Virus record (IMG/VR): IMGVR_UViG_3300033508_000321
DNA length: 64,000 nt
Source: a virus
Strand: one strand, 5' to 3'
Shown here: piece by piece, positions 7,676 to 63,061 of the stretch
Layout of the letters: each line of letters opens with the position of its first letter
How positions within the stretch are numbered: the first letter of the stretch is position 1
The notes under the pieces: generated by a model
Told to the model about the DNA's origin: nothing
Seen by the model: the letters and a program-made list of their open reading frames with translations, nothing else
Database searches by the model: none
Translations under genes and position numbers: made by a program

Positions 7676-7778
7676 GAAAAATATTTTTTTGTAAAATTAA
7701 GTGAATTTTAACAAAAATGTATAAAAATTTTGTATCGGGCACGCTAAGAATTTACTTTGTTAAAATTTTGTTATTGAT

Positions 7779-19427: not shown

Positions 19428-19612
19428 CTATTTAAAACTAACCAAAACGAGTAAAAATATTATATAAACCAGTGAAAAAATATGAGAAGCGCACCAACCT
19501 AAAAGTGCTTGGGTTAACTAACCCGATACAAAGGTAAAATTTTTGCGCAAAGGTTTACGTCATTAACAAAATTTTAACATGATGGACTATTGACAAATAC
19601 AAAAATCGGGTT

Positions 19613-19726: not shown

Positions 19727-19740
19727 CTGTTAGGTTTTAG

Positions 19741-19804: not shown

Positions 19805-19812
19805 TATATTTG
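19805..19812 (+). promoter_or_regulatory. -7 box TAtaTTTG for the replication-module transcript
   Basis: Exact TAnnTTTG. About 175 nt upstream of the ATG at 19989. Confidence 0.45.
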
Positions 19813-19886
19813 TACTGCAAGATTCCGACTATTGTAGTTCTAAAAAAGTGTAAGATGTTTGAAAATTTTGGTAATTATAATCTCAG

Positions 19887-19970
19887 CCCAAATAGGGTAG
19901 GTAAAGAAGAAAACGGATTTGACACTGTTTGCCGTTTTTCTTGCTGTCGGAAGCACCTACTCTATTTGGG
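19887..19970 (+). promoter_or_regulatory. Long imperfect hairpin in the 5' leader (attenuator or small structured RNA)
   Basis: 16-bp outer stem CCCAAATAGGGTAGGT / ACCTACTCTATTTGGG (one G-T). Inner stem GAAGAAAACGG / CCGTTTTTCTT. Followed by TTTTACTTTTT. Confidence 0.45.
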
Positions 19971-19988
19971 TTTTACTTTTTATACGCT

Positions 19989-21074
19989 ATGGAAGAATTT
20001 GCTGTAGATGATTTACAGATCGTAAACTTGAAACGTGTTTACGCTTGTGGGATTAAACCCGGTGATTTGAGCATCCCTGCATTGGTAATATTTTTTTACT
20101 TTGGTAAGGTTGCTGCCGTTAGTCATAGACTCGAAGATCGTGAGTACTTTTGGGTAGCACATGGTAAGGTTATAAAAGATAACCCGTACCATGAGTTCAC
20201 AAAAACAATCATTCAAAACAACGTAACGAAGTTGATAAAATTTGGGTTGTTGGAAAGGCACTCAAACGTACGAGAGCTAAATAGGAGCTACTACAGATTG
20301 ACTAATTTAGGTAAAACCGTTATTTTAGGTGATAGTGCTGATGATAACACGTTTTTTAAAAGCAAGAAAAAATACGGCGCAGTTAAAAAAGTGGCAAAAA
20401 AACCTAAGATAACCGAAACAAGTAAAACCTATCATAAAAATATGACAGGTAACGAAAAACCTATCATAAAAAAACGACACGAATATAATAATATAAATAA
20501 TAAAGAATATATTAATAAGATTATAGAAGAAGAAAAAGAAAAGGCTTTTTTCCGAAAAAATCTTATTACACATTTTCCAAAAGATCAGAGAGAGAATATC
20601 GATGTAAATGATTTGGAAACTGCTAAAGATGATCCATACCTACAGGACTTACTTACTGATGAGCTAACTTTTCAAATTAAGTACGATATAAAAGCAGATG
20701 AAAAAACATTACAATACAGAATGTATAACGAAGATGCTGTACATGAATTTTGTGGTTTACTCGTATTGTTTAACCCCGATTATATGCGTAACTATGACAT
20801 TTGGGATGCTTACCAGTTGTACATTCGTAGGCGAATTTTTGATGACCTAGACACCATACGAGCTGTTATTTATTCTACGATGCAATCTCATTTGATTGAA
20901 GAAAAACCCTATTTGTTTACCCCGATTTTTTGCCTAAGGCGTAGCGTATTTTTAGCAAATAAAGCATCCGCAGGTGAAGAGAAAATAACCCACTACAGAA
21001 ATGTAGATATTAACGATTTTATGAAATCCTACCCAACAGAAAACACTTATCCGAATGGCTACGAATTACCATGA
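19989..21074 (+). CDS. Winged-helix DNA-binding protein, replication-initiator-like
   Basis: Start moved to ATG 19989 (MEEFAV...) after the leader hairpin. N-terminal wHTH-like region (NNVTKLIKFGLLERH...YYRLTNLGK). First gene of the replication module. Confidence 0.45.
   Translation: MEEFAVDDLQIVNLKRVYACGIKPGDLSIPALVIFFYFGKVAAVSHRLEDREYFWVAHGKVIKDNPYHEFTKTIIQNNVTKLIKFGLLERHSNVRELNRSYYRLTNLGKTVILGDSADDNTFFKSKKKYGAVKKVAKKPKITETSKTYHKNMTGNEKPIIKKRHEYNNINNKEYINKIIEEEKEKAFFRKNLITHFPKDQRENIDVNDLETAKDDPYLQDLLTDELTFQIKYDIKADEKTLQYRMYNEDAVHEFCGLLVLFNPDYMRNYDIWDAYQLYIRRRIFDDLDTIRAVIYSTMQSHLIEEKPYLFTPIFCLRRSVFLANKASAGEEKITHYRNVDINDFMKSYPTENTYPNGYELP
20399..20472 (+). repeat. Iteron-like direct repeats inside the initiator-like gene
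   Basis: AAAACCTATCATAAAAA at 20424 and 20456 (17/17), read in different codon phases (KTYHKN vs EKPIIKK). Related AAAACCTAAGATAA at 20399. AT-rich tract 20473-20545 follows. Confidence 0.45.
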
Positions 21075-21588
21075 TTTATTAATTAAATTGGGTATGTTAC
21101 CCAGACACGCTAGGACTGAATTTACAGACCTAGAAAAAACAAAACTTACTGATTTTGTACTAAATTACCCGATTGAGTCACCACATAGCTTTATAGTGCA
21201 AGGTTCTGACGGTATAGGCAAAAATACTGCACTTAGTATGCTTGTAAAGCGTGCTATTGAGTACAACAAATTGAATGAGTGTATAAATTTTGGCGGCGAA
21301 AAAATACTGGTTCGCAGAATGCCGAAATTTATCTATTCATGGGTAGGTGTAAAACCAGAGGATTTAATGAGCGGTGATATGCTTGTAATACCTAACTTCG
21401 AACAATGCCCGTTTGTAAATGATTTACCCGGAATACTGGCGAAAAGGTCTGCTAATCCGTTATTTTTTGCGTTAATGAGTTGTGGTTTACGTACGAACCC
21501 TAAATTGGTAGAATCATTCTCGCAAGTATGTACAATTTACACCACTAAGGACGTAAAAGCATTCACCAGAACAAGCAAAGAATTATGA
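21055..21588 (+). CDS. P-loop ATPase (helicase-loader-like by context)
   Basis: Walker A GSDGIGKNT. Sits between the initiator-like and helicase genes. Confidence 0.45.
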   Translation: MATNYHDLLIKLGMLPRHARTEFTDLEKTKLTDFVLNYPIESPHSFIVQGSDGIGKNTALSMLVKRAIEYNKLNECINFGGEKILVRRMPKFIYSWVGVKPEDLMSGDMLVIPNFEQCPFVNDLPGILAKRSANPLFFALMSCGLRTNPKLVESFSQVCTIYTTKDVKAFTRTSKEL

Positions 21589-23063
21589 TAATAAGAAACT
21601 CAATGCTTCGCATACCAAACGGTATAGTGAGCGAAGAACAATTGGTTGACGATCTAAGCATTGACAATCCGAAATACGCAAGCGCAAAAAGGTTTTCACG
21701 TTACCCTGTTAGTATTCCAAAACGTTTGTACTTTTTTGCGAAATATCCCGATGGTAGCTACTTAGTACCCAGAAACTACCCGATACATAGACCGATGGTG
21801 CAACAGGTGAGTTTGGGTGTACCCATCACTGGTGAAATAAATTTCACGGCTCGAGAAGGTCAAACTGAAATCTTCAAAGAAATAGAGGAAAAATTGGCGG
21901 AAAATGTAACTGATTTTCTTCTTCATGTAGACACCGGCAAAGGTAAAACGATGCTCGCATTGTGGATGATTAACCGTTACAAACTACGTACACTGGTGGT
22001 AGTACCTACACGTGCACTAGGCTTACAATTCGTTGATAGGGTAAAGCAGTTTTCAAACTACTCAGCAGGTTTTTTCGCACCCGGAAAACCTTTGTACGAT
22101 GTGACTATAGTTACATATCATTTGCTTGGTGGTGCGAAAGAAAGGGCGGCAAAAGACCCGGATTTTTACACGAAATTTGGACACGTGATATTTGACGAGT
22201 ACCACAACGCAGGTGCTACGCAGTTTCACAAAGTAAACGAACTAGCAGCGTGTAAATACCGAACTATGTTAACAGCTACTTTTCGTAGGAAAGACGGCAT
22301 GGACAAGGTATTGAAATACCATTTCGAGCACACAATCACGTGGAAAGACTCAGACCGCAATTTTGTAGATGTTTACCCGGTTATGATAACCGATATTGAT
22401 CTGAATAAAGATTTTAACGGTTATGGCACACGTGCAACGGCACTACGAATGCTTAGAAGAAATGACATCGTAAAGGTTAACGGTATGGTGGGGCGTATAG
22501 ATGGGCTAAGACCTTACATTTTTGATTCGCCTAACGGTACTTTCGAGCTAGATTTAACGGATAAAGTATATCTGAGCAATGGGTTCTCGCACGTGATGTT
22601 TGAAACTAACTTGAGCAATGATGAAAAATTGCGGGAAAAAGCCCGGAAATTTATTGATGGTTTACCGAGTAAAAATATACTTGTATTGAGCAGTAGATTG
22701 AAACAACTAGAGGATCTGGACTCACTGCTCAAGAAAAAAAGCGGGGTGTTAAAAGGTAAGATAAAGGACAAAGAATATATAAAATATTTGCGGGATGATG
22801 CCGATGTAGTTTTGGGTATAGATAAACTAGCCAAAGAGGGTATGGACTTACCACGAATGGACACGCTGGTGTTTTTAACCTCTTACCGTGATATAGAACA
22901 GGCTTTAGGTAGGGTAACACGTGAGTACAAAGGCAAGACCCGGGTAAGTGTTTACTTTTTCATTTATGATAGCCCGTACAGCAAGCTATTCTATGGAAGA
23001 AACGGGGCGCAAAAAATGTTCGAAAAGTTAGGTTGTACCATGATGCCAATGTTTGAAATCTGA
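21585..23063 (+). CDS. SF2 DEAD/DEAH-box helicase
   Basis: Walker A DTGKGKT. Walker B FDEYH. TAT motif (LTATF). C-terminal helicase lobe. Confidence 0.7.
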   Translation: MIIRNSMLRIPNGIVSEEQLVDDLSIDNPKYASAKRFSRYPVSIPKRLYFFAKYPDGSYLVPRNYPIHRPMVQQVSLGVPITGEINFTAREGQTEIFKEIEEKLAENVTDFLLHVDTGKGKTMLALWMINRYKLRTLVVVPTRALGLQFVDRVKQFSNYSAGFFAPGKPLYDVTIVTYHLLGGAKERAAKDPDFYTKFGHVIFDEYHNAGATQFHKVNELAACKYRTMLTATFRRKDGMDKVLKYHFEHTITWKDSDRNFVDVYPVMITDIDLNKDFNGYGTRATALRMLRRNDIVKVNGMVGRIDGLRPYIFDSPNGTFELDLTDKVYLSNGFSHVMFETNLSNDEKLREKARKFIDGLPSKNILVLSSRLKQLEDLDSLLKKKSGVLKGKIKDKEYIKYLRDDADVVLGIDKLAKEGMDLPRMDTLVFLTSYRDIEQALGRVTREYKGKTRVSVYFFIYDSPYSKLFYGRNGAQKMFEKLGCTMMPMFEI

Positions 23064-23296
23064 TGTTTTGGAATCGCAAGCCTTTGAAGTATTTAGAATA
23101 TAACAAGGCGCTGGACGTGTTTAGAATCGTGGATAAACCGACTGAGGAACTGAATTACATGGTAATTTTGAGACGAAAAAATCGGGCAAAACTAGAGGAA
23201 TTTATCCGTGAAATTGAATACATAGCCCCACATATCCACCCGAAAAAGAAATTTGAATTAATACTTAAACGATCACTACTAAAAGAGAACAAATGA
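23063..23296 (+). CDS. Hypothetical protein
   Basis: ATG overlaps the helicase stop. 77 aa. Confidence 0.45.
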   Translation: MFWNRKPLKYLEYNKALDVFRIVDKPTEELNYMVILRRKNRAKLEEFIREIEYIAPHIHPKKKFELILKRSLLKENK

Positions 23297-23715
23297 ATAG
23301 AGAAATTAAATTTAGAGCGTGGGATTTAACAAGAAAAACCATGCTGGCAGATGTACAAGAGTATAAGCAGATTATTTTTACCATGCATAGCAATGTTCCA
23401 GATTGCATCACTTTTGGTAATATTTGCAATAGTAAAACTGAGGTGGTTATGCAAGCATCCGGACTGGTGGATAAAAACGGGTGGGAAATTTTCGAAGGTG
23501 ATATACTACAAAGTACACACCAGTACGATAGAGTACGTTTTTACAAAGTTTTTCATAAACCGGGTGGATTGTGCGTAAATGACTTTCAAGACGATTTTAA
23601 AAGATCTCCGGATGAGATTGCTTTCTACGGGGCACTCGCAGACCCTCAAAATGCTAGTTTTTTATCTTCGTGTGAAATCATAGGAAACGTATTTGAAAAC
23701 CCGGAATTGATATGA
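23293..23715 (+). CDS. YopX-family protein
   Basis: N-terminal REIKFRAWD and C-terminal EIIGNVFENPEL are the YopX hallmarks. Confidence 0.7.
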   Translation: MNREIKFRAWDLTRKTMLADVQEYKQIIFTMHSNVPDCITFGNICNSKTEVVMQASGLVDKNGWEIFEGDILQSTHQYDRVRFYKVFHKPGGLCVNDFQDDFKRSPDEIAFYGALADPQNASFLSSCEIIGNVFENPELI

Positions 23716-23921
23716 TATTAAGATACGAAGAAATAATAAATCACGATGTGCATTCACACATATACGAGGTTACTTTTATGATTCGTGACGGTGAAATTTG
23801 GCGGGAAAAACTAGAGGTTTATTCCGGCGAAGAAAAACACCAATACGATGCAGTACTAAGAAGGTGGGAAAAGGACTACCGAAGTCACAAAGTACGCTTA
23901 GTTGCTGTGACTGATATTTGA
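23712..23921 (+). CDS. Hypothetical protein
   Basis: ATGA-coupled 69-aa ORF. Confidence 0.45.
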   Translation: MILRYEEIINHDVHSHIYEVTFMIRDGEIWREKLEVYSGEEKHQYDAVLRRWEKDYRSHKVRLVAVTDI

Positions 23922-23995: not shown

Positions 23996-24053
23996 TTAAC
24001 AAATCAATAACAAAGTAGTTAACAACCCTTTAACAATTGATGATTTAAATTTG
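23996..24053 (+). promoter_or_regulatory. dut promoter: four TTAACAA-type heptamers plus -7 box TAaaTTTG
   Basis: TTAACAA 23996, ATAACAA 24007, TTAACAA 24019, TTAACAA 24030, N9, then TAaaTTTG 24046-24053. Confidence 0.5.
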
Positions 24054-24479: not shown

Positions 24480-24540
24480 AAAAATGGTATTAACAAACAG
24501 TTAACAACAACCAAAGAAAAACATAGATAATTTTACACCT

Positions 24541-25452
24541 ATGAAAAAAGCAGAAACACTTAGGCTCGATAAAACCACATTAGGGTTGCTCAAGAAGATG
24601 CGACCGGAAAGTGGGTTTTTTGTATGCAATGGCAGTTACATCATTGCGGAAAAAATATATGACGGACAATTGTGCCTTATAGGCTTAGCTTATGAAAGTG
24701 ATAAAATGACCATACCCTACGCACTGGTAGAAATGGCTAAAAAGTCACTCGTGCTGTTCTACGGCAGTAATGCGCTGGTGGATGATTTCGCAGTAAACTG
24801 GGATGCATGGGAACCATACGTTGAACCAGATTTCAAACCCAAAGGCGATGTGTGGATAGACGATGAAGTGGTAACAAACCTACAGCTATTGAAAGCGAGC
24901 ACCGGTAGTAAAATGGAAGCTGTACGTGTCTTTGCTGATTTAGCCGGAAACGTTATCTTTGATAACGGCCTTGCATACGTTTCCAGTGGTCATTACGTCC
25001 ATGTACAACACACACCGGTAGAAGAAAAATTTGCAATGCGGTTAGGTGCTATTCAGCACATACCAAACACCGGGTGCTTTTATGGTAAAACCGAAAAAGC
25101 TACGTATTTCTACAACGAAAATATAGCGGTAAAAATTTCGGATATGCCTAACTTGAAACTACCTGAGTACACAGTAGTAAAAGGGTTTTTCGAAAAGGAA
25201 TACGAGAAACTGCTAACCATAGATAAACAAACGGTGGTTAATCATTGTAAAGTAGCTTTGGCGAAAGAACCTGAAAAAAGGCAGCATAATAGCCTTGTGA
25301 TAGAATTAACACTTGAGGATATAACTATAAAAGTACGCCCAAAACAGATTTTGAACCTCTTAGCAGGTGTTTTGGATGACGTGCTTACTCTCGAACATAC
25401 GACAAATTTCTTTTTAATAAACAGTAATATTTTAGTAGCTAAAATCAATTAA
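24541..25452 (+). CDS. Hypothetical replication-module protein
   Basis: 303-aa ORF preceded by a TTAACAA dyad (24490/24501). No motif recognised. Confidence 0.5.
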   Translation: MKKAETLRLDKTTLGLLKKMRPESGFFVCNGSYIIAEKIYDGQLCLIGLAYESDKMTIPYALVEMAKKSLVLFYGSNALVDDFAVNWDAWEPYVEPDFKPKGDVWIDDEVVTNLQLLKASTGSKMEAVRVFADLAGNVIFDNGLAYVSSGHYVHVQHTPVEEKFAMRLGAIQHIPNTGCFYGKTEKATYFYNENIAVKISDMPNLKLPEYTVVKGFFEKEYEKLLTIDKQTVVNHCKVALAKEPEKRQHNSLVIELTLEDITIKVRPKQILNLLAGVLDDVLTLEHTTNFFLINSNILVAKIN

Positions 25453-25456
25453 ACAA

Positions 25457-25945
25457 ATGGCAACACAATTCATTTTAACAGACCCAGAAATTCGAGTAAT
25501 TGACAGCAAGGTATACGCATACTTGCATGACCTACCAAAAACAGAAACGGTAGAGGTAGTGGATGATACACAACCGAAAGCCGAGGTGGTAAAACCTGAA
25601 GTAAAACCAGAGCCTAAAGTTGAACCAAAGGTTGAACCAAAGGTTGAACCGAAAGTAACGGAAACACGAAGCAAGAAAGCAATCGAAAAGACGGTGGAAA
25701 AATCTGAATCAAACACCGTATGGGACTGGTCAACTATCGGACGTGGTGAAATGTTCACACTCGAGCACGCAGATGGCAATTGCGAAGTGGTAGCCGAAAG
25801 CGTAAAAACATTGGCGGGCGAAACTACAGTTTTCGTAGAAGTACTAAAAAGTGAAAACGAAAACCTAACGGTAGGTAAAAAATACGAACTATCTACCATT
25901 GACGATTTCGGTGATTTCATCTTTAAAACAGGTAACGTATTATGA
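25457..25945 (+). CDS. Hypothetical protein with (V/K)EPK repeat linker
   Basis: 12-nt tandem repeat GTTGAACCAAAG x3 at 25619-25654 encodes VEPKVEPKVEPK. Confidence 0.5.
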   Translation: MATQFILTDPEIRVIDSKVYAYLHDLPKTETVEVVDDTQPKAEVVKPEVKPEPKVEPKVEPKVEPKVTETRSKKAIEKTVEKSESNTVWDWSTIGRGEMFTLEHADGNCEVVAESVKTLAGETTVFVEVLKSENENLTVGKKYELSTIDDFGDFIFKTGNVL

Positions 25946-26385
25946 AAAAAGTAGGCGAAGAGTTCGACAAAGCAACGGTAGTAACCACTATCAATGCCGC
26001 AGCTAACAATCTGGAATTGGCACGAAAAAAAGCTAAGGAGATCAAAGAAATTGAGGATGACTCGAAAAACATTCTTAGCGAGTTTTTCAATCCAAAGTAC
26101 TCAGTTTTTCATGATAAAAAAGCTAAAAACGCAACGATTGACACCGGCGAATGGCAAGTGATAAACGAAAAGCGTGAATCATTGAAACAGAAAGCCGATG
26201 CACTGGCAAGCCTTGAGCAGATGATTGACAAAAAAGATTTGGCACGGTACACGGTAACTCAGGTAGTACTACCTGATGATGCGCTGGTAAACATGGTGCG
26301 GGGTGGCGTACTTACCGAAGAACAAGCAAACAGTTTGCTCGAGAGCAAAGTATCTTACGCACTCAAAGTAAAACGCTTAGCATGA
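25942..26385 (+). CDS. Hypothetical protein
   Basis: ATGA-coupled 147-aa ORF. Confidence 0.5.
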   Translation: MKKVGEEFDKATVVTTINAAANNLELARKKAKEIKEIEDDSKNILSEFFNPKYSVFHDKKAKNATIDTGEWQVINEKRESLKQKADALASLEQMIDKKDLARYTVTQVVLPDDALVNMVRGGVLTEEQANSLLESKVSYALKVKRLA

Positions 26386-26789
26386 AAGCAGTAGAACCGC
26401 AAACAGAAAAAATAACGCCTCTCTCTTACGAGAGGCTTATTACCCTCCCGCTTGTCAGTATCAATAGCATTAACAATATTTTCGGTCTGAAAGAAACCTC
26501 AGACATTAACGAAAAGTTGCAGAATATTATTGAAGCATCCAAAAAAGGTACGCCAAAGAACGTAGAAGCAATCATTAATGCTTATTCACAACGACGGGCT
26601 TATGTTACGATTGACTACACCAGAACCATCTCACCACAGAAATTTGAACCTATAAAACTGGGTGGTGGTGTTAGTATTCCGGTGGATTACACACCTGAGG
26701 AATTAAACCAAGCGATGAAAATTTGGCGGGAAACATTCCTAGAAATGAAAGAACTGGTAGACAAAGAAGCAAAGAGTATGCTATCATGA
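26382..26789 (+). CDS. Hypothetical protein
   Basis: ATGA-coupled 135-aa ORF. Confidence 0.5.
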   Translation: MKAVEPQTEKITPLSYERLITLPLVSINSINNIFGLKETSDINEKLQNIIEASKKGTPKNVEAIINAYSQRRAYVTIDYTRTISPQKFEPIKLGGGVSIPVDYTPEELNQAMKIWRETFLEMKELVDKEAKSMLS

Positions 26790-27352
26790 GAAAAACAAAC
26801 TTAGATGAGTTAAATGATGATCAACTGTACGGCTATATGTTAGCCGTACATGGTGACCGTGGCCGGGTACACTTAGCAAACTCAGATTCGAAGTACATGA
26901 AACGCTTGTACGAAAGCGGGTATGTGACGAAAGATGGTAATTTTTACTTGTTTGTTGCTACGCTCATTGATCAACCTGTGAGGTATGATTTCCCGGAAAG
27001 TTACAAGAATTTTTTAGAGGAATTTCGCAGCAATGCAACAACTTACGGAAAGGGTACGGTACAGCATAACAACTTGAGTAACCTCATCCTTAGTCGGGTG
27101 AATACCGGAATAATGAGTGATGTAGATTTATGCAAATTTGCTTCTTTGTTGGTTGCTATTCGTGACGAAAATCTTACTTTTAACCCATCTTACACGCCCA
27201 TAGCAAGCGAAAAAGCGGTGGCAAAGGGTATTTTATCTATGGCGGGGTTAAAAACGATTATAGACAACATGGTAGAATATTATTTATTTGACTCGAAAAA
27301 GCCCTCATCGTTAATTCAATACTATTACAATTTCAAAGCAGTATGCAGTTAA
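26786..27352 (+). CDS. Hypothetical protein
   Basis: Start moved to ATG 26786 (MRKTNL...), which overlaps the upstream stop as ATGA. Confidence 0.5.
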   Translation: MRKTNLDELNDDQLYGYMLAVHGDRGRVHLANSDSKYMKRLYESGYVTKDGNFYLFVATLIDQPVRYDFPESYKNFLEEFRSNATTYGKGTVQHNNLSNLILSRVNTGIMSDVDLCKFASLLVAIRDENLTFNPSYTPIASEKAVAKGILSMAGLKTIIDNMVEYYLFDSKKPSSLIQYYYNFKAVCS

Positions 27353-28536
27353 ATTTACTATACGCAGTAATCCATAAATCGGATACCAAGATTTTAGCCA
27401 GTATCAAAGAAGAATTTTTTGATGATGATCACAAAGAAATTTTGCGTTTCGTTCGATTACATCATGCGAAGTATGGTAAATTTCCTGATGCAGAAACTGT
27501 AGAGCAGGAATTTGAAATTGAGTTTGAAAGAACCTCTGATCCCGCACAATTTTGGTACGATAAATTACTGGTGAAATACCGTGAACGTTTGGTAGAGGAA
27601 GCGGTAAAAGAGGCGGTGAGGAAAAAAACCATCGAACCGTTCGCAGAAGCAATACAAAAATGGCATAAAGCCGATGGTAATGGCGAGGTAATAAACTACG
27701 GCGATAATACAGACGAACGCTTGCAGGTGTATACCGACCGACTGGGTACAAGTGGTATAGCTTACCTTAGTACCGGCGTACCTGAATTGGATGATCTCAC
27801 TTTCGGAATCGGGAAGACTGACTATTGGTTAATCGGGGGGCAAGAGGGTGTTGGTAAAACATGGTGGCTGCTTCGCTTAGCGTACGGTATGAGTAACTCA
27901 GTACGTAGGTTGAAAGAAACACGTGGTAGACCGATATTTTTCATCAACAATGAAATGGACGTTACTGAATTGATTGAACGCGTAGATGCGATGCAAGCAC
28001 GAATAAGCTATACAAGGCTTACCACGGGCAAACTAAATGTGCAAGAACAGGAAACACTTAGAGACTATTTGAGCACGGTAAAAGCGAGGAAAAATAGCGG
28101 AAAAGAGATATTCCGAGTGGTGAATGATATTAACCGAGTATCGGAAATAGAACAGCTAATAAATCTATACAATCCGGCAATGATTATAGTGGATGGTATA
28201 CACTTAGTAAGTAAGTCTTTCGATTGGCAGGACATGATGACTGCTAACCGTGACCTGAAAGCACTCACACGCAGGTATAACGTACCAATTATTTCAGCGG
28301 CGCACCTGAAAGCAAAAGCGGGTGTAAAAGAAGATGAGGTAAACACCGATTCTTTTGCATACTTCAAAGGTGCTAGAGATGCTGATGTAAGTTTTGTCTT
28401 TTTTCAAGATGACCAAATGGCCAATGATGATGAAATCGGGCTAAAAATGGTAAAAGGGCGCAAAGGGCAAAAAGGTGCGATACTGTATAGGAATCACAGA
28501 GAAACAACCGAACAAACAATAATAAGAGTAGTATGA
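27343..28536 (+). CDS. dnaB: DnaB-like replicative DNA helicase
   Basis: Walker A GGQEGVGKT. Walker B MIIVDGIHL. DnaB-like N-terminal domain. Confidence 0.75.
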   Translation: MQLNLLYAVIHKSDTKILASIKEEFFDDDHKEILRFVRLHHAKYGKFPDAETVEQEFEIEFERTSDPAQFWYDKLLVKYRERLVEEAVKEAVRKKTIEPFAEAIQKWHKADGNGEVINYGDNTDERLQVYTDRLGTSGIAYLSTGVPELDDLTFGIGKTDYWLIGGQEGVGKTWWLLRLAYGMSNSVRRLKETRGRPIFFINNEMDVTELIERVDAMQARISYTRLTTGKLNVQEQETLRDYLSTVKARKNSGKEIFRVVNDINRVSEIEQLINLYNPAMIIVDGIHLVSKSFDWQDMMTANRDLKALTRRYNVPIISAAHLKAKAGVKEDEVNTDSFAYFKGARDADVSFVFFQDDQMANDDEIGLKMVKGRKGQKGAILYRNHRETTEQTIIRVV

Positions 28537-29798: not shown

Positions 29799-29843
29799 TT
29801 AACAACCAGTTAACAAATCACTAGCTATAAATTTATACTTTTG
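29799..29843 (+). promoter_or_regulatory. TTAACAA-N4-TTAACAA dyad plus -7 box TActTTTG
   Basis: Heptamers at 29799 and 29810, N19, then TActTTTG 29836-29843. ATG at 29892. Confidence 0.5.
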
Positions 29844-34270: not shown

Positions 34271-34469
34271 TGTAGTGAGTAAAGATCACGAATTTGAGAT
34301 TAAGTACACCGATGCTGCCAGTTATAAGTTGAACATCTCAGACCTTGAGAAACTAGAGCGCAAATGTAGTATGAACCGTGAGCCGGTCTTTTTGGTGGAA
34401 TTCCGTCAAATTGGTAAGACCTATGCCATAGTAGAATTAGGATATTTAGAAACTCTGGTTAAGTTTTAA
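34140..34469 (+). CDS. Hjc-like PD-(D/E)xK nuclease (putative Holliday junction resolvase), overlapping recA 3' end out of frame
   Basis: ELKLAKRLQGKVTANSGAAKNQNDVVSKDHEFEIKY fits the Hjc-type pattern (SG...D...E-x-K). The SG and D residues are encoded inside the overlap. Confidence 0.5.
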   Translation: MENHWLQAQEKPSRKQSQKQELKLAKRLQGKVTANSGAAKNQNDVVSKDHEFEIKYTDAASYKLNISDLEKLERKCSMNREPVFLVEFRQIGKTYAIVELGYLETLVKF

Positions 34470-34613
34470 CAACTTATTTACAATTTTAGGAAACTTTGTT
34501 AAAAACTTGTTAATTTCTTATAGATTTTAACAAATCATTAACAAAGTTTCCTTTTATAATTTATTGGTGTTTAACAACTTATTAACAAATGCTGCTTTAT
34601 CTTTGTTGTATAA
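34466..34613 (+). repeat. Terminator/promoter module, copy A (of 4)
   Basis: 15-bp inverted repeat AGGAAACTTTGTTAA (34488-34502) / TTAACAAAGTTTCCT (34538-34552) plus TTTTATAATTT. TTAACAA dyad 34571/34582. -7 box TAtcTTTG 34598-34605. Confidence 0.85.
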
Positions 34614-34648
34614 ATTTTTAAACAGAAAACAACTAAAATTTTAAAATC

Positions 34649-37322: not shown

Positions 37323-38992
37323 GAGTATTCGATGCATTAAAAACTGACTGGCTTGGACGTGGTGAAAACTATGTGAAACGTGCAGAATTAACTTTTGATT
37401 TGTTAACGCTTGAACCTTATTCTACTTTCATGTACAAAATACCGGCGGGTGCAGTTAGTTTCGTACAACCGCTCACCACTAAATTTGTCAGCACGATAAA
37501 ACCGGTGACGATAAAGTATAGCGATAAAGGTAGCAGCACTGATGGTAAGCAAATTATAATCAGCACCGAGCCAGAGGCTACTTTAGAACCACAGAAAGCG
37601 TTGGACGTGATGATCGGTCTGGGATGCCGTGAAGTAGCGCACATCATGTATACAACATTTGAGGTGGAGAAAAATGAGGTTTTGCGAGCGATTATAAACA
37701 TTGTAGAGGATGAACGTATAGAGGATCGAATGGTAACAGATTTGCCCGGCGTTTTTCCATTCTTACAGCGTGCAAAAGCGTTCTTTTTTGACAGAATACC
37801 CGATGCGCCTAAAAACGAATTACAAGAGATATTTTTGGCCTTTTTACGCTTAGTACGTTACCCTGCTACACTACCCGAGGAATTAGCTGATAAGTATAAT
37901 GATGTGCTGGAACAGATACTTGAAATCTTGACACCGTACCCGAGCACGTTCGAAGAGGTAAAAATTGCATCGAAAAAAATATACGAACTGTTTCTACAAT
38001 TCATGGACGAGCAAGAAGAACAGCAACAACGGAATGAGCAAGGCGAAAGTGAGGATGTGGAAGAGGGCGAAGGGCAAAGCAGTGGTGAGGAATCTACTGA
38101 GGAAAAAATGCTACGTATGCTGAAAAGTTTGGCGCAAGCATTAGAACCAGAGGTAGAAGGTGAAAAGCCAGAGGATACTCGAATACTACCAACCGAGGGC
38201 ACGTGTGATGTATTTTCGGTAAGGTGGCAAAAACCCGGCGGAATGATAAAAGGTAAACCTGACTTAAGTAGCGTAGCAGCTATCCGCCGTGAATTTCTAC
38301 CGATTGACTATACCAAGAAACACGTGCTACACAATAAAAATAGCGGTAGCTTAGATGATACTGAACTGGTACGAGGCTTTGCCGGTAGTAAGAACATCTA
38401 CGAGGTAACATCATACGGAAAAGCCGATATTTTGAATCTTGTTCTTTTGGTGGATCAATCTGGTAGCATGGATGGTAGCCGAATAGAAATGGCAAGAAAC
38501 GTAGCTATAATCGTGAGGGAAGCAACACGTGGATTTTCATTTATTCGCTTTTTTGCTTATGGTCATTCTACTGAGGATAGTGGTAGACCTACACCTACGG
38601 ACTTAGATATTTTTTGCGAAAAGGGCGTGGATAAATTGGATTCGATACAAGCGAAAAATGCTTGCAATCGTGATGGTAGCGCAATCATGGAGGTTACTGC
38701 TCGAGTACAAGCATTAAGCCCCTACAAAACTGTTATTCTGATGATCAGCGATGGCCAACCGAATGCCTTAGTACCACACGGGTTTACGGATGAAAGTTTT
38801 ATACGTCACGCAGTAAAATTTGCGGAAAAACGGAAAACCAAAATAGCACACATAAGCATGGTAGGTTTATCGTGGAAAAACGTATACGCATACGAGATGG
38901 ATGCAAGCAGTAATTTTACCATGAAAATGGTACTGATGCTTAGACAGGTATTGAAAGATAATTTTGCTCAAAATGTGTTAACAAAACTTTAA
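37319..38992 (+). CDS. von Willebrand factor A (vWA) domain protein, CobT-like
   Basis: Central acidic tract EEQQQRNEQGESEDVEEGEGQSSGEESTEE. MIDAS motif LLVDQSGSMDGSR. Confidence 0.75.
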   Translation: MRVFDALKTDWLGRGENYVKRAELTFDLLTLEPYSTFMYKIPAGAVSFVQPLTTKFVSTIKPVTIKYSDKGSSTDGKQIIISTEPEATLEPQKALDVMIGLGCREVAHIMYTTFEVEKNEVLRAIINIVEDERIEDRMVTDLPGVFPFLQRAKAFFFDRIPDAPKNELQEIFLAFLRLVRYPATLPEELADKYNDVLEQILEILTPYPSTFEEVKIASKKIYELFLQFMDEQEEQQQRNEQGESEDVEEGEGQSSGEESTEEKMLRMLKSLAQALEPEVEGEKPEDTRILPTEGTCDVFSVRWQKPGGMIKGKPDLSSVAAIRREFLPIDYTKKHVLHNKNSGSLDDTELVRGFAGSKNIYEVTSYGKADILNLVLLVDQSGSMDGSRIEMARNVAIIVREATRGFSFIRFFAYGHSTEDSGRPTPTDLDIFCEKGVDKLDSIQAKNACNRDGSAIMEVTARVQALSPYKTVILMISDGQPNALVPHGFTDESFIRHAVKFAEKRKTKIAHISMVGLSWKNVYAYEMDASSNFTMKMVLMLRQVLKDNFAQNVLTKL

Positions 38993-39050
38993 CAAGCGTA
39001 CGGGTAAGTAACTAAGTGAAATACAACTATATTTACAAGAAATAAACAAC

Positions 39051-48900: not shown

Positions 48901-48946
48901 TTAACAAGCTATTAACAATAAGTAAAAAGTTAATTAACTATTTTTA
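48901..48946 (+). promoter_or_regulatory. TTAACAA dyad plus TAttTTTa box upstream of 48974
   Basis: Heptamers at 48901 and 48912, N20, then TAttTTTa 48939-48946. An exact TAatTTTG also lies at 48882-48889. Confidence 0.45.
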
Positions 48947-50903: not shown

Positions 50904-51280
50904 GCACACGTGCCTACATAGCAAGAAAAATAGATGATGGTTTTGAGTACATCTACTGCCACAATTCCGGTGAAGAAGACATAGCAGTATTGATAGACGA
51001 TTACGGTACTGATGAAAAGGTAAAAGAACTAATATCCCTTGGTGACATTTCATCTTTGGGCTCGAAAGTAATCCCAAACCCAGGAAGACGTCACACATTC
51101 GAACATCCACAAAAAGACGTAACCGTAGCCTATTACCGAGACCGCAACGAAGGCTGGTTACGAGTGAAACCGGGCAGAGTACCAGCGTTACACGAGCTGT
51201 TAGGTATAGCAGAAAGAGGAGGAATAGACTTTGTGTTTACATTTGACAATGGTGTATGGGCTAGTTATGAGATAGTTTAA
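50900..51280 (+). CDS. Hypothetical protein
   Basis: ATGA-coupled 126-aa ORF. Its stop lies inside module copy B. Confidence 0.5.
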   Translation: MSTRAYIARKIDDGFEYIYCHNSGEEDIAVLIDDYGTDEKVKELISLGDISSLGSKVIPNPGRRHTFEHPQKDVTVAYYRDRNEGWLRVKPGRVPALHELLGIAERGGIDFVFTFDNGVWASYEIV

Positions 51281-51424
51281 CAACTTATTTACAAATTGAG
51301 GAAACTTTGTTAAAAACTTGTTAATTTCTTATAGATTTTAACAAATCATTAACAAAGTTTCCTTTTACAATTTTCTGGGTGTTAACAACTTATTAACAAA
51401 TGTTACTTTATCTTTGTTGTATAA
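51277..51424 (+). repeat. Terminator/promoter module, copy B
   Basis: Same architecture as copy A. -7 box TAtcTTTG 51409-51416. Dyad 51382/51393. Confidence 0.85.
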
Positions 51425-51442
51425 ACAAATAAGAAAAACACA

Positions 51443-51766
51443 ATGGAAACTCAATTAGCAATCAGAACCAGACAACAAGAAATAGCTCAAACTATACTGG
51501 AACAACTAGGTGGATTAAATCGTTTAAATGCGATGTTAGGCTTAAAAGACTTGATGGTAAACGGTTATGGCCTCAGTTTCAAAATCAGCGTAAAAGCAGC
51601 CGCAAACTATGTAAACATCACATTAACCAGTGATGGTCTGTACTACGTAGAATTGGGTAAAATTCGTGGCAAATCTTACAACATAGTAGCTAACTTTCAA
51701 GGCGTGTATGCTGACCAATTGAAAAGCATAATCGAAGATACAGCAAAAGTAAGACTATCATTATAA
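51443..51766 (+). CDS. Cassette 2 cargo: 107-aa protein of unknown function
   Basis: ORF between module B and hairpin copy 2. Confidence 0.6.
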   Translation: METQLAIRTRQQEIAQTILEQLGGLNRLNAMLGLKDLMVNGYGLSFKISVKAAANYVNITLTSDGLYYVELGKIRGKSYNIVANFQGVYADQLKSIIEDTAKVRLSL

Positions 51767-55173: not shown

Positions 55174-55992
55174 ATGAAAGTAGAAATTTTAGCAGATTCA
55201 CTGCACCGAGGCCACCGCCTCACCACTTTCCGACTCACGTTTCCTCAAATCATAGTAAAGGAAATGCTTCGGCATAGAATGTTTTCTTTCGCAAGTCTGA
55301 GTATGCGGGCTATTGGCTTAGATAGAAACATAGAAAAAATAAAGGCGGATATGTGGCGACCTTTGAGCTGGTTACCTGAGCACAAAGGTATGTGTACTGA
55401 TGAGGTAATTGAAAACCGGGAAGAACTGGACGAGCTACATAATGAGCTATTCCAAATCACTATGCGATACGTAAGACAGTTGCAGCAAAGAAACGTATCC
55501 CACCAAATCGTTAACCGGTACATAGAACATTTCGGGCAAGTGCAGATGATTGTATCAGCAACCGAATGGGAAAACTTCTACAAGTTACGCAGGGGTAAAC
55601 GTGCTGAGCAGCACATAAAACTTTTGGCGGAAACGATGTACGATGCTCAAAATACGAGTACACCATACACGTCCGATGACCGCTTCTGGCATATGCCATT
55701 CGTTGGTGGTATAGAAGAAAACGTGGCGAAAGTAGCACGTGTTTCGTTTAGTCAAGATAAGGTATTCACACCAGAGGAAAATAAAAACTTGTACAAGAAA
55801 CTTTTAGCAAGCGGTGAAATGTCACCATTTGAACACGTGGCCGTGGCAATGGGTAGCCGTTACTATGATTATTCACGAACCGTTACCGGTGGTTTAGAGC
55901 ATGGATGGGATAAAAATTTCCGTGGTTTTATTTCTCTTCGCACGCTGGTGGAAAACCCTTTGAACGTAGACTACGTGGAAATGGCAGTGTAG
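55174..55992 (+). CDS. thyX: ThyX-like flavin-dependent thymidylate synthase
   Basis: RHRMFSFASLSMRA fits the ThyX signature RHRxxSxxxxSxR(Y), with Ala in place of Tyr. Confidence 0.65.
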   Translation: MKVEILADSLHRGHRLTTFRLTFPQIIVKEMLRHRMFSFASLSMRAIGLDRNIEKIKADMWRPLSWLPEHKGMCTDEVIENREELDELHNELFQITMRYVRQLQQRNVSHQIVNRYIEHFGQVQMIVSATEWENFYKLRRGKRAEQHIKLLAETMYDAQNTSTPYTSDDRFWHMPFVGGIEENVAKVARVSFSQDKVFTPEENKNLYKKLLASGEMSPFEHVAVAMGSRYYDYSRTVTGGLEHGWDKNFRGFISLRTLVENPLNVDYVEMAV

Positions 55993-55994
55993 TT

Positions 55995-56142
55995 TTAACA
56001 ACTTATTTACAATTAAAGGAAACTTTGTTAAAAACTTGTTAATTTCTAATAGATTTTAACAAATCATTAACAAAGTTTCCTTTTATAATTTATTGGTGTT
56101 TAACAACTTATTAACAAATGATGCTTTATCTTTGTTGTATAA
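55995..56142 (+). repeat. Terminator/promoter module, copy C
   Basis: Differs from copy A at about 4 positions by manual alignment. -7 box 56127-56134. Dyad 56100/56111. Confidence 0.85.
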
Positions 56143-56160
56143 ACAAATAAGAAAAACACC

Positions 56161-56487
56161 ATGAGAACTTTAACAAGCAGTTTCACAAGATTAGAGGAAA
56201 ACACACTTTTTTCCGCTGAATTTCAACAAGCATTAACAGAAGTGCAAAATATGGTACTGGGATTAAGCCCAATGAAAGCCGAACAGGGAAAGTTATACGC
56301 AGCGGAAGCAGCCGGGGAACTTTCCGAGTACGAGGTTGACAAGCTGGTAGAAACTACCATAGTTGAGCACAAGAAATTCACGGCAAAGTTCTACAAATTG
56401 GAACTTAACGATGATGACCAAGGGCAGTATTCAGCTACCGAGGGTGCGTTTTTTGCCTCCGGTGTAGCCACACTAACAATATACTAG
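56161..56487 (+). CDS. Cassette 3 cargo: 108-aa protein of unknown function
   Basis: ORF between module C and hairpin copy 3. Confidence 0.6.
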   Translation: MRTLTSSFTRLEENTLFSAEFQQALTEVQNMVLGLSPMKAEQGKLYAAEAAGELSEYEVDKLVETTIVEHKKFTAKFYKLELNDDDQGQYSATEGAFFASGVATLTIY

Positions 56488-61106: not shown

Positions 61107-62678
61107 ATGCTCACTTCACCGCAATATTATTTCACCTCTACCGTACGTCCGATTAACTTATTCATGGCAGGTTATGGCTCAGGAAAAACCCGAAGCATGG
61201 GTGATCTTAGTTTGTATTTCATTTCTAATTTTCCAGAAATTATTGGACTCATTGCCGCAAATACTTTTTCGCAGTTAACACGTTCAACGTTATTCCGGGT
61301 TTATCAGGTATGGGAAGAAAATGGTGTTGGTGAGTACAGCGAAAACAACCCAAAGGGTCAGTACGTAATGGGTAAGATTCCGCCCCGGCATTTTAAGCGT
61401 TCGAAATATCGCTTGGATGATTATTCGAATGTAATAAGTTTCATTAACGGTGCTATAGTTTTCAAAGGTACACTGGAAAATTACAAGGCGTTGGATGGTA
61501 TGGAGGTCGGGTGGGCTATGTTGGATGAAACGAAAGATACGAGAAGCGAAGCATTGGGGGTTATTATTTCCCGACTTCGTCAGCACGGTGTGTATTTGAA
61601 AGAAAATCATATCATGGAACGGGATAAAAAAGCGGGAGATTATAGCCCATTCTCAAAAACCATAACTGACTATCCTATTAACCCTCTGTACGTATTCACC
61701 GCACCGGCAAAAGAACCATGGTTAAATGCGTTTTTCCACATCTCAGACCTAAGACCAGAGGACATTAAGCCCCGCCTTTTTTCACCACCGCATTATTACC
61801 ATCAGGTAACAGACCATCAGCAAATCATGATTGCAAGCACGTACACGAATGAAAAGAACCTGCCGAGTAGTTACATACCTTCGCTTGCTGAAAGCATGGG
61901 AAAAGCGTTCGTAGATATGTTTATTTACAGCTACCCGTTCTCAGCATCGGGTGGTGAGTTCTACAAAGATTTTAACCGTGAAAAACACGTTGGTACGTGT
62001 GAGTACGATCCGGCGTTACCACTTCATATAACATTCGATGAAAACGTAGTACCATACCAACCTGCCGGTGTATGGCAGACGATGGGAAAACGTGTACGCA
62101 AGATTGCAGAAGTACCGATGGAACCACCTAGGAATAATATTTTTGAGCTATGTAAAGAACTGGGTGTAAAATATGGCGGACATAAAGCCGGGGTGTTTAT
62201 CTACGGTGATGCTACGAGCTTAAAACGTGATAGCAAGCAGCGATTAAATGAAAACTTCTTTACCATTGTAAGGCGTGAGCTGTACGAGTGGAAACCGGTG
62301 ATGCGAATACCATTACAGAACCCGGATGTCGTACATCGGGGTAGTTTTGTGAATGCAATTTTGCGGGATAAAATATTCGGCATTGACTTACTCATAGATG
62401 AATCGTGCCGGAAAAGTATCGAAGATTACGAATTTCTCAAAGAGGATAACGAGGGTAAAAAGCGCAAAGAAATGTACACCGATCCATTAACAAAGGTAAG
62501 CTACCAGCGGTGGGGTCACTTCTCGGATGCGGATGATTACTTCTTACTGGAATATTTCAGACATGAATACAACGCATTTTTGAAAAAAGCTAAAAATAAA
62601 AATACCGAAATACAAGAAAGTGAGCAGATGGACAGAATACTTCGCCGGATGCCTACACGTATAAGTAAGAAATTTTAA
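61107..62678 (+). CDS. Terminase large subunit
   Basis: Start moved to ATG 61107, downstream of the -7 box. Walker A GYGSGKTRS. Walker B WAMLDETKD. C-terminal nuclease-sized domain. Confidence 0.8.
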   Translation: MLTSPQYYFTSTVRPINLFMAGYGSGKTRSMGDLSLYFISNFPEIIGLIAANTFSQLTRSTLFRVYQVWEENGVGEYSENNPKGQYVMGKIPPRHFKRSKYRLDDYSNVISFINGAIVFKGTLENYKALDGMEVGWAMLDETKDTRSEALGVIISRLRQHGVYLKENHIMERDKKAGDYSPFSKTITDYPINPLYVFTAPAKEPWLNAFFHISDLRPEDIKPRLFSPPHYYHQVTDHQQIMIASTYTNEKNLPSSYIPSLAESMGKAFVDMFIYSYPFSASGGEFYKDFNREKHVGTCEYDPALPLHITFDENVVPYQPAGVWQTMGKRVRKIAEVPMEPPRNNIFELCKELGVKYGGHKAGVFIYGDATSLKRDSKQRLNENFFTIVRRELYEWKPVMRIPLQNPDVVHRGSFVNAILRDKIFGIDLLIDESCRKSIEDYEFLKEDNEGKKRKEMYTDPLTKVSYQRWGHFSDADDYFLLEYFRHEYNAFLKKAKNKNTEIQESEQMDRILRRMPTRISKKF

Positions 62679-62822
62679 CAGCTTATTTACAATTTTAGGA
62701 AACTTTGTTAAAAACTTGTTAATTTCTTGTAGATTTTAACAAATCATTAACAAAGTTTCCTTTTATAATTTATTGAGTATTAACAACTTATTAACAAATC
62801 ATTTATTGTCTTTGTTGTATAA
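62675..62822 (+). repeat. Terminator/promoter module, copy D (variant -7 box TGtcTTTG)
   Basis: Same palindrome and dyad (62780/62791). The -7 position reads TGtcTTTG at 62807-62814. Confidence 0.8.
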
Positions 62823-62839
62823 CAAAACAAAAAAACACA

Positions 62840-63061
62840 ATGGAAAACAAAGTAAAAACATTCGGGGAACTTACACAAGGCACTGTTATAAATTATCGTA
62901 ATAACGTGGTAGCGGATGATACCAATTTCGTAGTGCTTCGCCAGTACGAGAATAGATTTGGTAAGTGGACAGAAGTTTTGAACTTAGATACCTACGAAAA
63001 AGATTTTTTTACCCAGCATACAAAAACTCAGAATCTCTGGACAATAGTAAAAGAAAATTAA
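62840..63061 (+). CDS. Cassette 4 cargo: 73-aa protein of unknown function
   Basis: ORF between module D and hairpin copy 4. Confidence 0.55.
   Translation: MENKVKTFGELTQGTVINYRNNVVADDTNFVVLRQYENRFGKWTEVLNLDTYEKDFFTQHTKTQNLWTIVKEN

Follow-up and report, generated by a model that had tools for sequence, protein, structure and literature searches.

Phased TTAACAA dyads at the promoters of a Bacteroidota phage match bacterial Pho boxes and may be read by a host regulator

Pho boxes and other activator sites at phage promoters

At the Pho promoters of E. coli, the Pho box replaces the -35 element, and PhoB bound to it contacts region 4 of the sigma factor. The box of PhoP, its counterpart in B. 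subtilis, consists of TT(A/T/C)ACA repeats with a 5-nucleotide (nt) spacer. Such boxes are built of two 7-base-pair (bp) direct repeats with a 4-bp spacer, giving a period of 11 bp. They lie on the coding strand, either in place of the -35/-33 element or just upstream of it, and strong promoters carry arrays of two to four repeats. The same features are found in a stretch of viral DNA of 64,000 nt (IMG/VR virus record IMGVR_UViG_3300033508_000321, hereafter the window), in which the heptamer dyad TTAACAANNNNTTAACAA (TTAACAA-N4-TTAACAA) heads most transcription units of the non-structural part. In the present analysis, the TTAACA core was also found to precede pst and pit genes in many phyla. 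The phage boxes differ from the known Pho boxes in the genes they precede, which are those for dUTPase, replication, recombination, DNA modification and tRNA instead of phosphate acquisition. They also differ in that 13 phage sites match the consensus perfectly, in that the core promoter is of the Bacteroidota -7 type, and in that the binding of PhoB is here a prediction.

The closest described case comes from the cyanophages. Host PhoB is known to bind promoters of phage S-PM2d, including those of DNA polymerase and UvsX, as well as the pstS promoter of P-SSM2 (PMC10976474). As in the window, Pho boxes on a phage genome serve the host PhoR/PhoB system, and replication and recombination genes are among the targets, although in the window these are predicted ones. 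Unlike the sites described here, the cyanophage boxes are few and degenerate and belong to a minority of the genes, and their prediction is called unreliable by the authors themselves (PMC10976474). In the window, near-perfect boxes head most of the non-structural units, and the design recurs across many Bacteroidota phages. The control of phage genes by host PhoB is thus already known from the cyanophages.

Phage promoters are also known to use activators of their own. In the middle promoters of T4 (a MotA box at -30, with AsiA) and in the CII-dependent promoters of lambda (TTGC-N6-TTGC), an activator site replaces or straddles the -35 element while a -10-type element is kept, and the CII site is likewise a direct repeat. 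These activators are, however, encoded by the phage, whereas none was found here and the site equals the box of a host regulator. No description of the present promoter class in Bacteroidota phages was found in the literature, of which the coverage was incomplete.

Dyads and their promoters

A sequence-only reading of the window had listed ten dyad sites and had estimated that such dyads should hardly ever arise by chance. All ten sites were recovered, including the one-mismatch copies at 19574 (TTAACAt) and 24007 (ATAACAA), and the estimate was borne out. There are 17 exact matches to the dyad, 13 on the plus strand and 4 on the minus strand, against an expectation of 0.00 from 100 dinucleotide-preserving shuffles. 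The single heptamer TTAACAA occurs 69 times in the window, with 31.5 expected. On the plus strand, 31 of the 52 heptamers are intergenic, though 94% of the window is coding DNA, and just 6 of the 52 fall in its first 19.4 kilobases (kb). The sole spacing below 20 nt between these plus-strand heptamers is 11 nt (n=13). All 17 exact dyads have the 4-nt spacer, that is, they are direct repeats with an 11-bp period. The C of the heptamer is invariant across the sites, and the spacers vary and contain G+C (CCCT, ACAG, CCAG).

The placement of the dyads is equally regular. A count by strand and by coding context, which the earlier reading had proposed as a check, placed every exact dyad between genes or at the end of a gene, and every one outside the palindromes of the repeat modules on the coding strand. 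A relaxed scan allowing one or two mismatches added 19563, 23996, imperfect dyads at the start of the modules and a minus-strand site at 7757-7774; the module-start dyads and the minus-strand site had been missed before. No dyads were found on the plus strand of the structural block (1-19,380). From 19.4 to 64 kb, dyads head most transcription units, and nearly all sizeable intergenic gaps contain a dyad, then a -7 box, then a gene start. The sites are as follows.

7757..7774, minus strand: one-mismatch dyad ATAACAA-AATT-TTAACAA, 57 nt 5' of TAATTTTA and 81 nt 5' of the ATG of the sole minus-strand gene (7160-7675); membership of the set uncertain.
19563..19580, plus strand: TTAACAA-AATT-TTAACAt, 32 nt 5' of the -7 box TATCTTTG (19613-19620); heads tRNA-Met (19630-19701).
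23996..24036, plus strand: four phased heptamers (23996, 24007 as ATAACAA, 24019 and 24030; steps of 11, 12 and 11), ending 9 nt 5' of the -7 box TAAATTTG (24046-24053); the dUTPase promoter.
24490..24507, plus strand: perfect dyad, 20 nt 5' of TAATTTTA (24528-24535); heads the unit 24541-29684, including DnaB and primase.
29799..29816, plus strand: perfect dyad, 19 nt 5' of TACTTTTG (29836-29843), with a second box 11 nt away; heads the unit 29892-34469, including PolA and RecA.
34462..34644, plus strand: module 1, with an imperfect dyad at 34466, a palindrome (34488-34552) of an inverted dyad (34496-34513, minus strand) and a direct dyad (34527-34544) followed by TTTTATAATTT, the promoter dyad 34571-34588, the -7 box TATCTTTG (34598-34605) and a conserved leader; drives gene 34649-35809, which ends at the hairpin GGGGCGAAAGCCCC (about 35818-35831).
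38978..38995, plus strand: perfect dyad over the stop codon of gene 37319-38992, 32 nt 5' of TATATTTA (39028-39035); heads the unit 39051-46414 (Cas4-type exonuclease, SNF2, ParB-like protein, PAPS reductase).
48901..48918, plus strand: perfect dyad, 20 nt 5' of TATTTTTA (48939-48946), with a terminator-like hairpin (48846-48878) on its 5' side; heads the unit 48974-51280.
51273..51455, plus strand: module 2, with dyads at 51277 (one mismatch), 51307 (minus strand), 51338 and 51382 and a box at 51409-51416; drives gene 51443-51766, followed by the GGGGCGAAAGCCCC hairpin (51773-51788).
55991..56173, plus strand: module 3, with dyads at 55995 (one mismatch), 56025 (minus strand), 56056 and 56100 and a box at 56127-56134; drives gene 56161-56487, followed by the GGGGCGAAAGCCCC hairpin (56502-56515).
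62671..62853, plus strand: module 4, with dyads at 62675 (two mismatches), 62705 (minus strand), 62736 and 62780 and the degenerate box TGTCTTTG (62807-62814); drives gene 62840-63061, followed by the GGGGCGAAAGCCCC hairpin (63067-63080).

The distance from the end of the dyad to the TAnnTTT(G/A) box falls into three classes, as had been proposed: 9 nt (24019, 34571, 51382, 56100), 19-20 nt (24490, 29799, 48901) and 32 nt (19563, 38978). On recomputation these classes stood, with two corrections: the box after 62780 has one mismatch to TAnnTTT(G/A), and 29799 has the second box at 11 nt. The 32-nt distance is the sum of 9 nt and the 23 nt by which the two dyads of the dUTPase promoter (23996 and 24019) are offset. 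A single heptamer register therefore holds at all sites, at about -28, -39, -51 and -62, with the -7 box starting near -12. The suggestion that the dyads keep to one face of the helix relative to the -7 box was thus confirmed for all distance classes, and this fixed register supports their prediction as promoter-linked sites of protein binding.

The placement of a heptamer at -33, first proposed for the 9-nt class, holds for the 20-nt class as well. Promoters of both classes lack TTTG and carry a heptamer at that position, about 20 nt 5' of the -7 box. The dyad of the 9-nt class spans about -39 to -22, whereas in the 31/32-nt class it is found another helical turn upstream and covers about -60 to -44. 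For comparison, a canonical promoter without a dyad (TTTG, 21 nt, TAAATTTG; about 63,545-63,577) heads the structural operon. A scan with the sigma-70 consensus was uninformative for this type of host. At 24528-24535, the ATG lies only 5 nt downstream of the end of the box, so that the mRNA would be nearly leaderless.

The dyads thus occupy 11 dispersed loci, co-oriented with the genes and in register with the -7 boxes, and they are real promoter elements. A single 183-nt repeat accounts for four of the five 9-nt cases, so that the independent loci, about 7 in addition to this repeat family, are fewer than the sites; they comprise 19563, 23996/24019, 24490, 29799, 38978, 48901 and the module family, perhaps with 7757.

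Likeness to bacterial Pho boxes

Judged by its sequence, the dyad is a direct-repeat site of the OmpR/PhoB family of response regulators (TTAACA-N5-TTAACA, 11-bp period). Its reverse complement, TGTTAA-N5-TGTTAA, fits the consensus of WalR/YycF, TGT(A/T)A(A/T/C)-N5-TGT(A/T)A(A/T/C) (PMC5405149). In S. epidermidis, YycF sites of the form TTAACA-N5-TTTACA have been predicted 5' of pstS and phnD (Table 3, PMC5405149); these may actually be sites of PhoP.

In species-representative bacterial genomes, more than 120 loci with three phased boxes were found, spread over many phyla. For 80 of these triple-box loci (8 kb each), the first same-strand open reading frame (ORF) of at least 80 amino acids was taken as the downstream gene. 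These 80 included 6 PstS, 4 PstC/A, 2 PstB, 2 PitA and 1 Na/Pi cotransporter, and also 2 OmpR-type regulators, an S1/P1 nuclease and 3 OprD-type porins. Pho genes therefore make up the largest recognisable group, about 15 of the 80. Inside the 8-kb loci, 15 to 17 regulators of the OmpR family were counted.

The resemblance extends to the core promoter. In a locus from Bacteroidales (L167), four phased TTAACA boxes are followed after 19 nt by TACTTTTG, a porin-like gene and PstS (PF12849, 1e-42). In one from Spirosomataceae (L136), three boxes are followed after 19 nt by TAATTTTG, PitA and a phosphate-selective porin (PF07396, 9e-33). The 19-nt gap between box and TAnnTTTG is thus common to these Bacteroidota Pho promoters and the phage. 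An independent sample was formed by six porin-pstS loci of Bacteroidales, chosen by PstS homology alone. Phased (T/G)TAACA repeats are present in three of the six promoters, and one further locus is unclear. L358 has three phased TTAACA boxes 20 nt (counted from the hexamer) 5' of TAATTTTG; L356 has a dyad and an extra TTAACA 9 nt 5' of TATTTTTG; and L359 has GTAACA-N5-GTAACA-N5-TTAACA. By this comparison, phased TTAACA serves many phyla as a Pho box, among them the Bacteroidota at least in part, with the strand and the spacing seen in the phage.

Recurrence in other phages

A two-heptamer scan of IMG/VR yielded, among the matches listed, mostly single chance matches, and contigs with several matches were therefore used. 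The combination of dyad, fixed gap and -7 box is present in IMG/VR contigs by the dozen. For most of these contigs, the comparison of proteins covered parts of the sequence; within these parts, no protein in common with the window was detected for at least seven phage lineages of this design, nor, mostly, any between one lineage and another (L114; L108; L305, from a 125-kb contig; L262/L302; L309/L339/L345; L269; L354). A search for shared proteins among the dyad-using phage loci likewise gave nothing in common with the window. L114, from a contig of 161 kb, has ten such promoters in 14 kb. In the parts compared, the box is not confined to phages with one activator gene; it is found in phages without a detectable shared protein and in bacterial Pho promoters alike.

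When all viral loci are taken together and the gap is counted from the second hexamer to the next -7 box, two distances stand out, 20-21 nt (13 loci) and 31 nt (24 loci). The consensus of the 31-nt class reads (TTAACAAAAnn) two to three times, about 7 nt, TTTG, 20 nt and TATnTTTA. From this layout, the class is a dyad placed just upstream of a normal -33/-7 promoter. A different arrangement was noted in L053 (7654-7726), L315, L304 and L308, where TTAACAAGTTC-like units, five or more in number, follow one another without interruption as 11-bp tandem arrays; such long arrays look more like iterons than promoters.

One of the dyad-using phages is in culture. Tenacibaculum phage Larrie (ON950054.1, genus Cbastvirus, 77.5 kb) encodes its own RNA polymerase. 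Its genome has 17 hexamer dyads, with 0.045 expected, and a -7 box lies 31-32 nt downstream in 15 of 16 arrays. Thirteen of the dyads, all on the strand of the genes, fall within 9 kb of small ORFs, a block that we infer to be the early region, read by the host polymerase. If the block is early, the reader of the dyads must be in the cell before infection. In addition, four promoters with a dyad and a -7 box (16737-20364 of Larrie, L361) point on the plus strand into gaps of 300-1100 nt without an annotated gene, each set back-to-back with promoters of the gene strand; their products may be non-coding RNAs or small ORFs missed by the annotation. The paper on Larrie does not discuss promoters.

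The search for a phage-encoded reader

The sequence-only reading had taken the dyads as the signature of a dedicated regulator and had proposed, as one possibility, a DNA-binding protein encoded by the phage. A dedicated phage protein finds no support: the motif is the box of the PhoB/OmpR family, and the phage genome encodes no recognisable domain of the OmpR type. A profile hidden Markov model of the OmpR/PhoB effector domain was built from the regulators of the bacterial triple-box loci and run with --max; its positive control gave 17 bacterial hits. No such domain was found in six-frame ORFs of the window, of the 2.3 kb missing from it, of the sister contig L244 and of the other viral loci, or in the complete genome of Larrie.

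Two proteins had been named as candidate binders. The product of 7160-7675, taken for a helix-turn-helix (HTH) protein, is an ORFan: it matches nothing in Pfam, PHROG or the PDB sequences and shows no sign of an HTH, so that it finds no support as a binder. The product of 19989-21074 (gp19989), taken for a winged-helix protein, has no match in Pfam, PHROG or PDB either. AlphaFold models of the two proteins reached a confidence (pLDDT) of 35 and 37 and were unusable for a fold search. No relative of gp19989 was found in IMG/VR, and its one homologue, on L244, is 49% identical.

Over 10.6 kb, L244 and the window agree at 97% of positions, and the dyads of L244 are the same at five of five orthologous sites, save one base (heptamer position 7 of the tRNA site, t to c); the sites 23996-24036, 24490 and 29799 are identical. 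The putative recognition helix of gp19989, by comparison, differs at most positions (TKTIIQNNVTKLIKFGLL vs SKQSLHRLIDRLIKSKLL). Such drift of the protein while the dyads are kept is not expected of a regulator with a dozen invariant sites, and gp19989 finds no support either. The corresponding region of L244 (2878-4370) has an extra ORF of 129 amino acids just upstream and a different tRNA-Met sequence, and from this alignment the region beside the tRNA is a local hot spot of gene replacement.

A concatenated Pfam scan of 60 small proteins revealed no DNA-binding regulator, a scan that is less sensitive than single-protein scans (ParB_N was seen only in the latter). A weak HTH in gp48220 turned out to belong to the small terminase and not to a regulator.

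The set of genes behind the dyads had been described as an early/middle regulon. The dyads do head most non-structural units, but the label may be too narrow: the large terminase and the lysozyme also lie downstream of them, 3' of module 3, with no other recognisable promoter between.

Host PhoB and the alternative readers

We favour, with moderate confidence, the reading that the dyads are boxes for a PhoB-type regulator of the host and serve as activator sites of class II or class I. A host regulator of the OmpR/PhoB family, most likely the phosphorylated PhoB (PhoB~P) of the Bacteroidota host, would sit as a head-to-tail dimer on each TTAACAA-N4-TTAACAA. Through this dimer, the sigma-A RNA polymerase of the host would be recruited to a promoter with its -7 box (TAnnTTTG) retained. 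The heptamer at -33 would allow class II activation in the 9- and 20-nt classes, as at the Pho promoters of E. coli, and in the 32-nt class the dyad, one turn further upstream, would act by class I activation. The transcription of the non-structural genes would then track the phosphate status of the host or the phosphate drain induced by infection. PhoB as the reader, its activating role and this phosphate-following are all inferred. The Pho promoters of E. coli are reported to form a hierarchy by affinity (PMC4447250), and the perfect consensus of the 13 sites would win PhoB~P even at low levels. More tentatively, it is possible that many Bacteroidota phages have no activator of their own for promoters of the host polymerase and rely on consensus boxes for host PhoB at fixed positions, from the 66-kb Mu-headed phage of the window to the 161-kb jumbo contig and Larrie.

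Several observations weigh against host PhoB. Lysis by Larrie takes place in a rich medium that is presumably replete with phosphate (PMC10013915), which makes a strict dependence on starvation-activated PhoB unlikely, at least where a -33 element is present. To this it may be answered that natural aquatic hosts would usually be phosphate-limited, and that the phage's own DNA synthesis could trigger the Pho response. It would also be odd, and risky, for a probably virulent phage to tie its replication genes to one nutrient signal. Triple boxes of Bacteroidota also precede an S8 peptidase, a SusC-like receptor, a GH16 protein and a 7TMR-DISM kinase, and two porin-pstS promoters of Bacteroides (L355 and L360; 2461-2708) have no TTAACA. 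In some hosts, then, a different regulator of the OmpR family may use the box. In these two promoters, TGTAAT-like units with an 11-nt period lie in the opposite orientation instead, which may be a genus-specific variant of the Pho box. The core match was moreover made with pst/pit loci of Bacteroidota at large (L167, L136, L358 and L356). Many phage ORFs are unannotated, which leaves room for a reader of unrecognised fold.

One alternative is such a reader, encoded by the phage and activating a regulon of middle genes in the manner of T4 MotA boxes or lambda CII sites; its specificity would mimic that of PhoB, and the Pho regulon of the host could then be switched on as well. One candidate would again be gp19989, whose N-terminus resembles a winged helix by eye (LNRSYYRLTNLG). 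This is the first gene of the unit 19989-23921, which has a -7 box (TATATTTG, about 19800) and no dyad and could therefore be expressed first, and most of the small ORFs have no annotation. Moreover, the only relatives in IMG/VR, L001 and L002 (about 33% identity, distant but syntenic), are without dyads, and the system is thus lineage-specific. Against this, gp19989 has diverged between the window and L244 in the midst of flanking DNA that is 97% identical, with the dyads constant, and it has neither family, PDB nor fold evidence. No protein is common to the dyad-using phage loci, and the dyads of Larrie stand in an apparent immediate-early block. An exact match to the Pho box in sequence, spacing, strand and 19-nt gap would, further, need mimicry or coincidence. 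A phage-encoded reader is thus rather doubtful.

The growth of Larrie in rich medium would be easier to reconcile with another, constitutive host factor, which we hold unlikely: a growth-active regulator of the OmpR family like WalR of the Firmicutes or, less likely, the alpha C-terminal domains of RNA polymerase on a UP-like element. The consensus sequences of WalR and PhoP overlap, and some triple boxes of Bacteroidota precede a two-component kinase or regulator and not pst; against such a regulator, Pho genes form the largest group among the recognisable genes behind the bacterial triple boxes. As for UP elements, known from strong early phage promoters and rRNA promoters, the dyad of the 31-32-nt class, 5' of the TTTG -33 element, does lie where they are found. 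Unlike them, the dyad has a sequence-specific core, and in the 9- and 20-nt classes it lies downstream of -40. The invariant C and the variable, G+C-containing spacers point to reading in the major groove rather than of an A-tract. Bacterial TTAACA boxes also go with Pho genes and not with tRNA genes, no triple box being seen 5' of a tRNA gene in 120 loci, which contained only 3 tRNA genes and were not searched for rRNA operons. On these grounds, a general UP-element or stable-RNA reading was rejected.

It is highly improbable that the dyads are iterons for replication initiation, partition or packaging, with the module palindromes as origins or pac sites and an initiator, one of two ParB-like proteins or the small terminase as the would-be binder. 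The thought is suggested by the modules, whose eight heptamers in both orientations resemble an iteron cluster, by the two ParB-like proteins and the HTH-bearing small terminase that the phage encodes, and by IMG/VR contigs such as L053 with their long 11-bp tandem arrays. Replication and partition iterons, however, cluster at one locus, whereas these sites are dispersed over 11 loci, linked to promoters, co-oriented with genes and at quantised distances to -7 boxes that recur in other phages. The cumulative GC skew of the window has no turning point, and it would be unusual for a genome of 66 kb to have as many as four origins or pac sites.

Repeat modules and gene cassettes

The four modules are 82-91% identical copies of the 183-nt repeat, each with eight heptamers in both orientations. 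Their heptamers and the 9-nt length before the box are invariant, whereas the sequence of these 9 nt varies (ATGCTGCTT, ATGTTACTT, ATGATGCTT, ATCATTTAT). The inverted (34496) and direct (34527) dyads had been read as the arms of a large palindrome, and the module structure confirms it. In module 1, the hairpin 34488-34552 folds as RNA with -25.7 kcal/mol (z = -5.8) and is followed by the U-run UUUUAUAAUUU. The palindrome thus has the stable hairpin and the U-run of an intrinsic terminator, and in all four modules it lies directly 3' of the upstream gene. Its probable role is twofold, to end the transcription of the upstream unit and to supply a strong promoter with extra boxes. The 4-nt spacers within the stem are non-complementary, which indicates that the heptamers, and not the pairing, are under selection.

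A module, a single gene and the conserved GGGGCGAAAGCCCC hairpin together form a promoter-gene-terminator cassette. The four cassette genes are mutually unrelated, and one of them matches phrog_9437. In the metagenome contig L243, module 3 is found at 98% identity. Module 4 lacks 44 bp there (L243 6940-7160 vs window 62736-62875), apparently through recombination between its two direct dyads, and this loss restores a consensus TATCTTTG box. L243 also lacks 35 bp that include the start codon of gene 62840-63061. The deletion in module 4 indicates that the repeats are recombinationally active.

Genome context

All genes of the window are on the plus strand, the gene at 7160-7675 excepted. L243 (1-11107) is 98% identical to window positions 55698-64000, continues for 2.3 kb past the window end, with genes for a Mu-type portal and a Mu gp36-like protein and one further ORF, and then matches the window again from its start (1-570). 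As it bridges the end and the start of the window, the genome is circular or circularly permuted. By this join, it measures about 66.3-66.4 kb, and the window lacks only the genes of the 2.3 kb. An identical gp19989 is present on a contig of 66,454 bp. Relatives of the portal in isolated phages come almost all from Flavobacterium, Bacteroides, Porphyromonas, Winogradskyella and Elizabethkingia, which agrees with the -7 boxes and the A-rich leaders without a Shine-Dalgarno sequence. No close relatives were found among the GenBank phages by DNA or PolA.

The block 1-19,380 encodes a Mu-like head and a contractile tail (ClpP/Mu-I protease-scaffold, DUF2586 sheath-like protein, tape measure). Its MuF-like minor head protein (2118-3545) carries a C-terminal domain of the ADP-ribosyltransferase toxin type (PF03496, 2.5e-07) and may be an ejected effector. 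The non-structural genes follow the tRNA-Met, tRNA being all that an Rfam scan of the window detected. They encode a helicase, dUTPase, DnaB, primase, PolA, RecA, MoxR-type AAA and VWA proteins, a Cas4-type exonuclease, SNF2, the two ParB-like proteins, PAPS-reductase/DUF3440, a TET-associated glycosyltransferase, the small terminase, DUF4942, a ThyX-like protein, lysozyme, Dam and the large terminase. The small terminase (48220-48714; phrog_309, 1e-33) and the probable large terminase (61062-62678; a weak phrog_2 match) are 12 kb apart, both in the non-structural part and distant from the portal.

A gene set of the modification type lies at 44141-48223, 51980-53485, 55174-55992 and 57966-58394. 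It includes a ParB-like and a PAPS-reductase/DUF3440 protein with one ORF (44679-45260) between them, a putative pair of the IbrA/IbrB type. The second ParB-like protein adjoins the TET-associated glycosyltransferase, and DUF4942, ThyX-like and Dam proteins belong to the set as well. This suggests that the phage DNA is modified, and modified bases could alter the binding of proteins to the dyads. Further, four consecutive small ORFs at 41159-42234 (99, 98, 90 and 77 amino acids), with the C-termini LEYRCKVK, LEYLCRVK, IEYQCEIK and MEFICEVK, look like a tandem family of paralogues.

Significance for Bacteroidota phages

The promoter architecture and gene regulation of Bacteroidota phages are almost unknown. 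The motif TTAACA-N5-TTAACA at 9, 20 or 31 nt from TAnnTTTG provides a sequence rule by which the promoters of the host polymerase can be found in uncultured phages of this phylum. The modules offer compact, strong and possibly phosphate-responsive promoters for Bacteroidota genetics, and Larrie, grown on Tenacibaculum larymnensis, makes the idea open to immediate test in culture.

If the dyads are PhoB boxes, phage expression in abundant aquatic and gut bacteria would be wired to a nutrient sensor of the host, on a scope far beyond the few auxiliary genes known in cyanophages, and phosphate limitation would be linked to the dynamics of infection. PhoB would then be a general host dependency factor for flavobacterial phages. 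The pace or success of infection would be set by the phosphate status of the host or by the phosphate drain of DNA synthesis, which would act as a built-in timer, and phosphate would directly control phage transcription in lakes and oceans.

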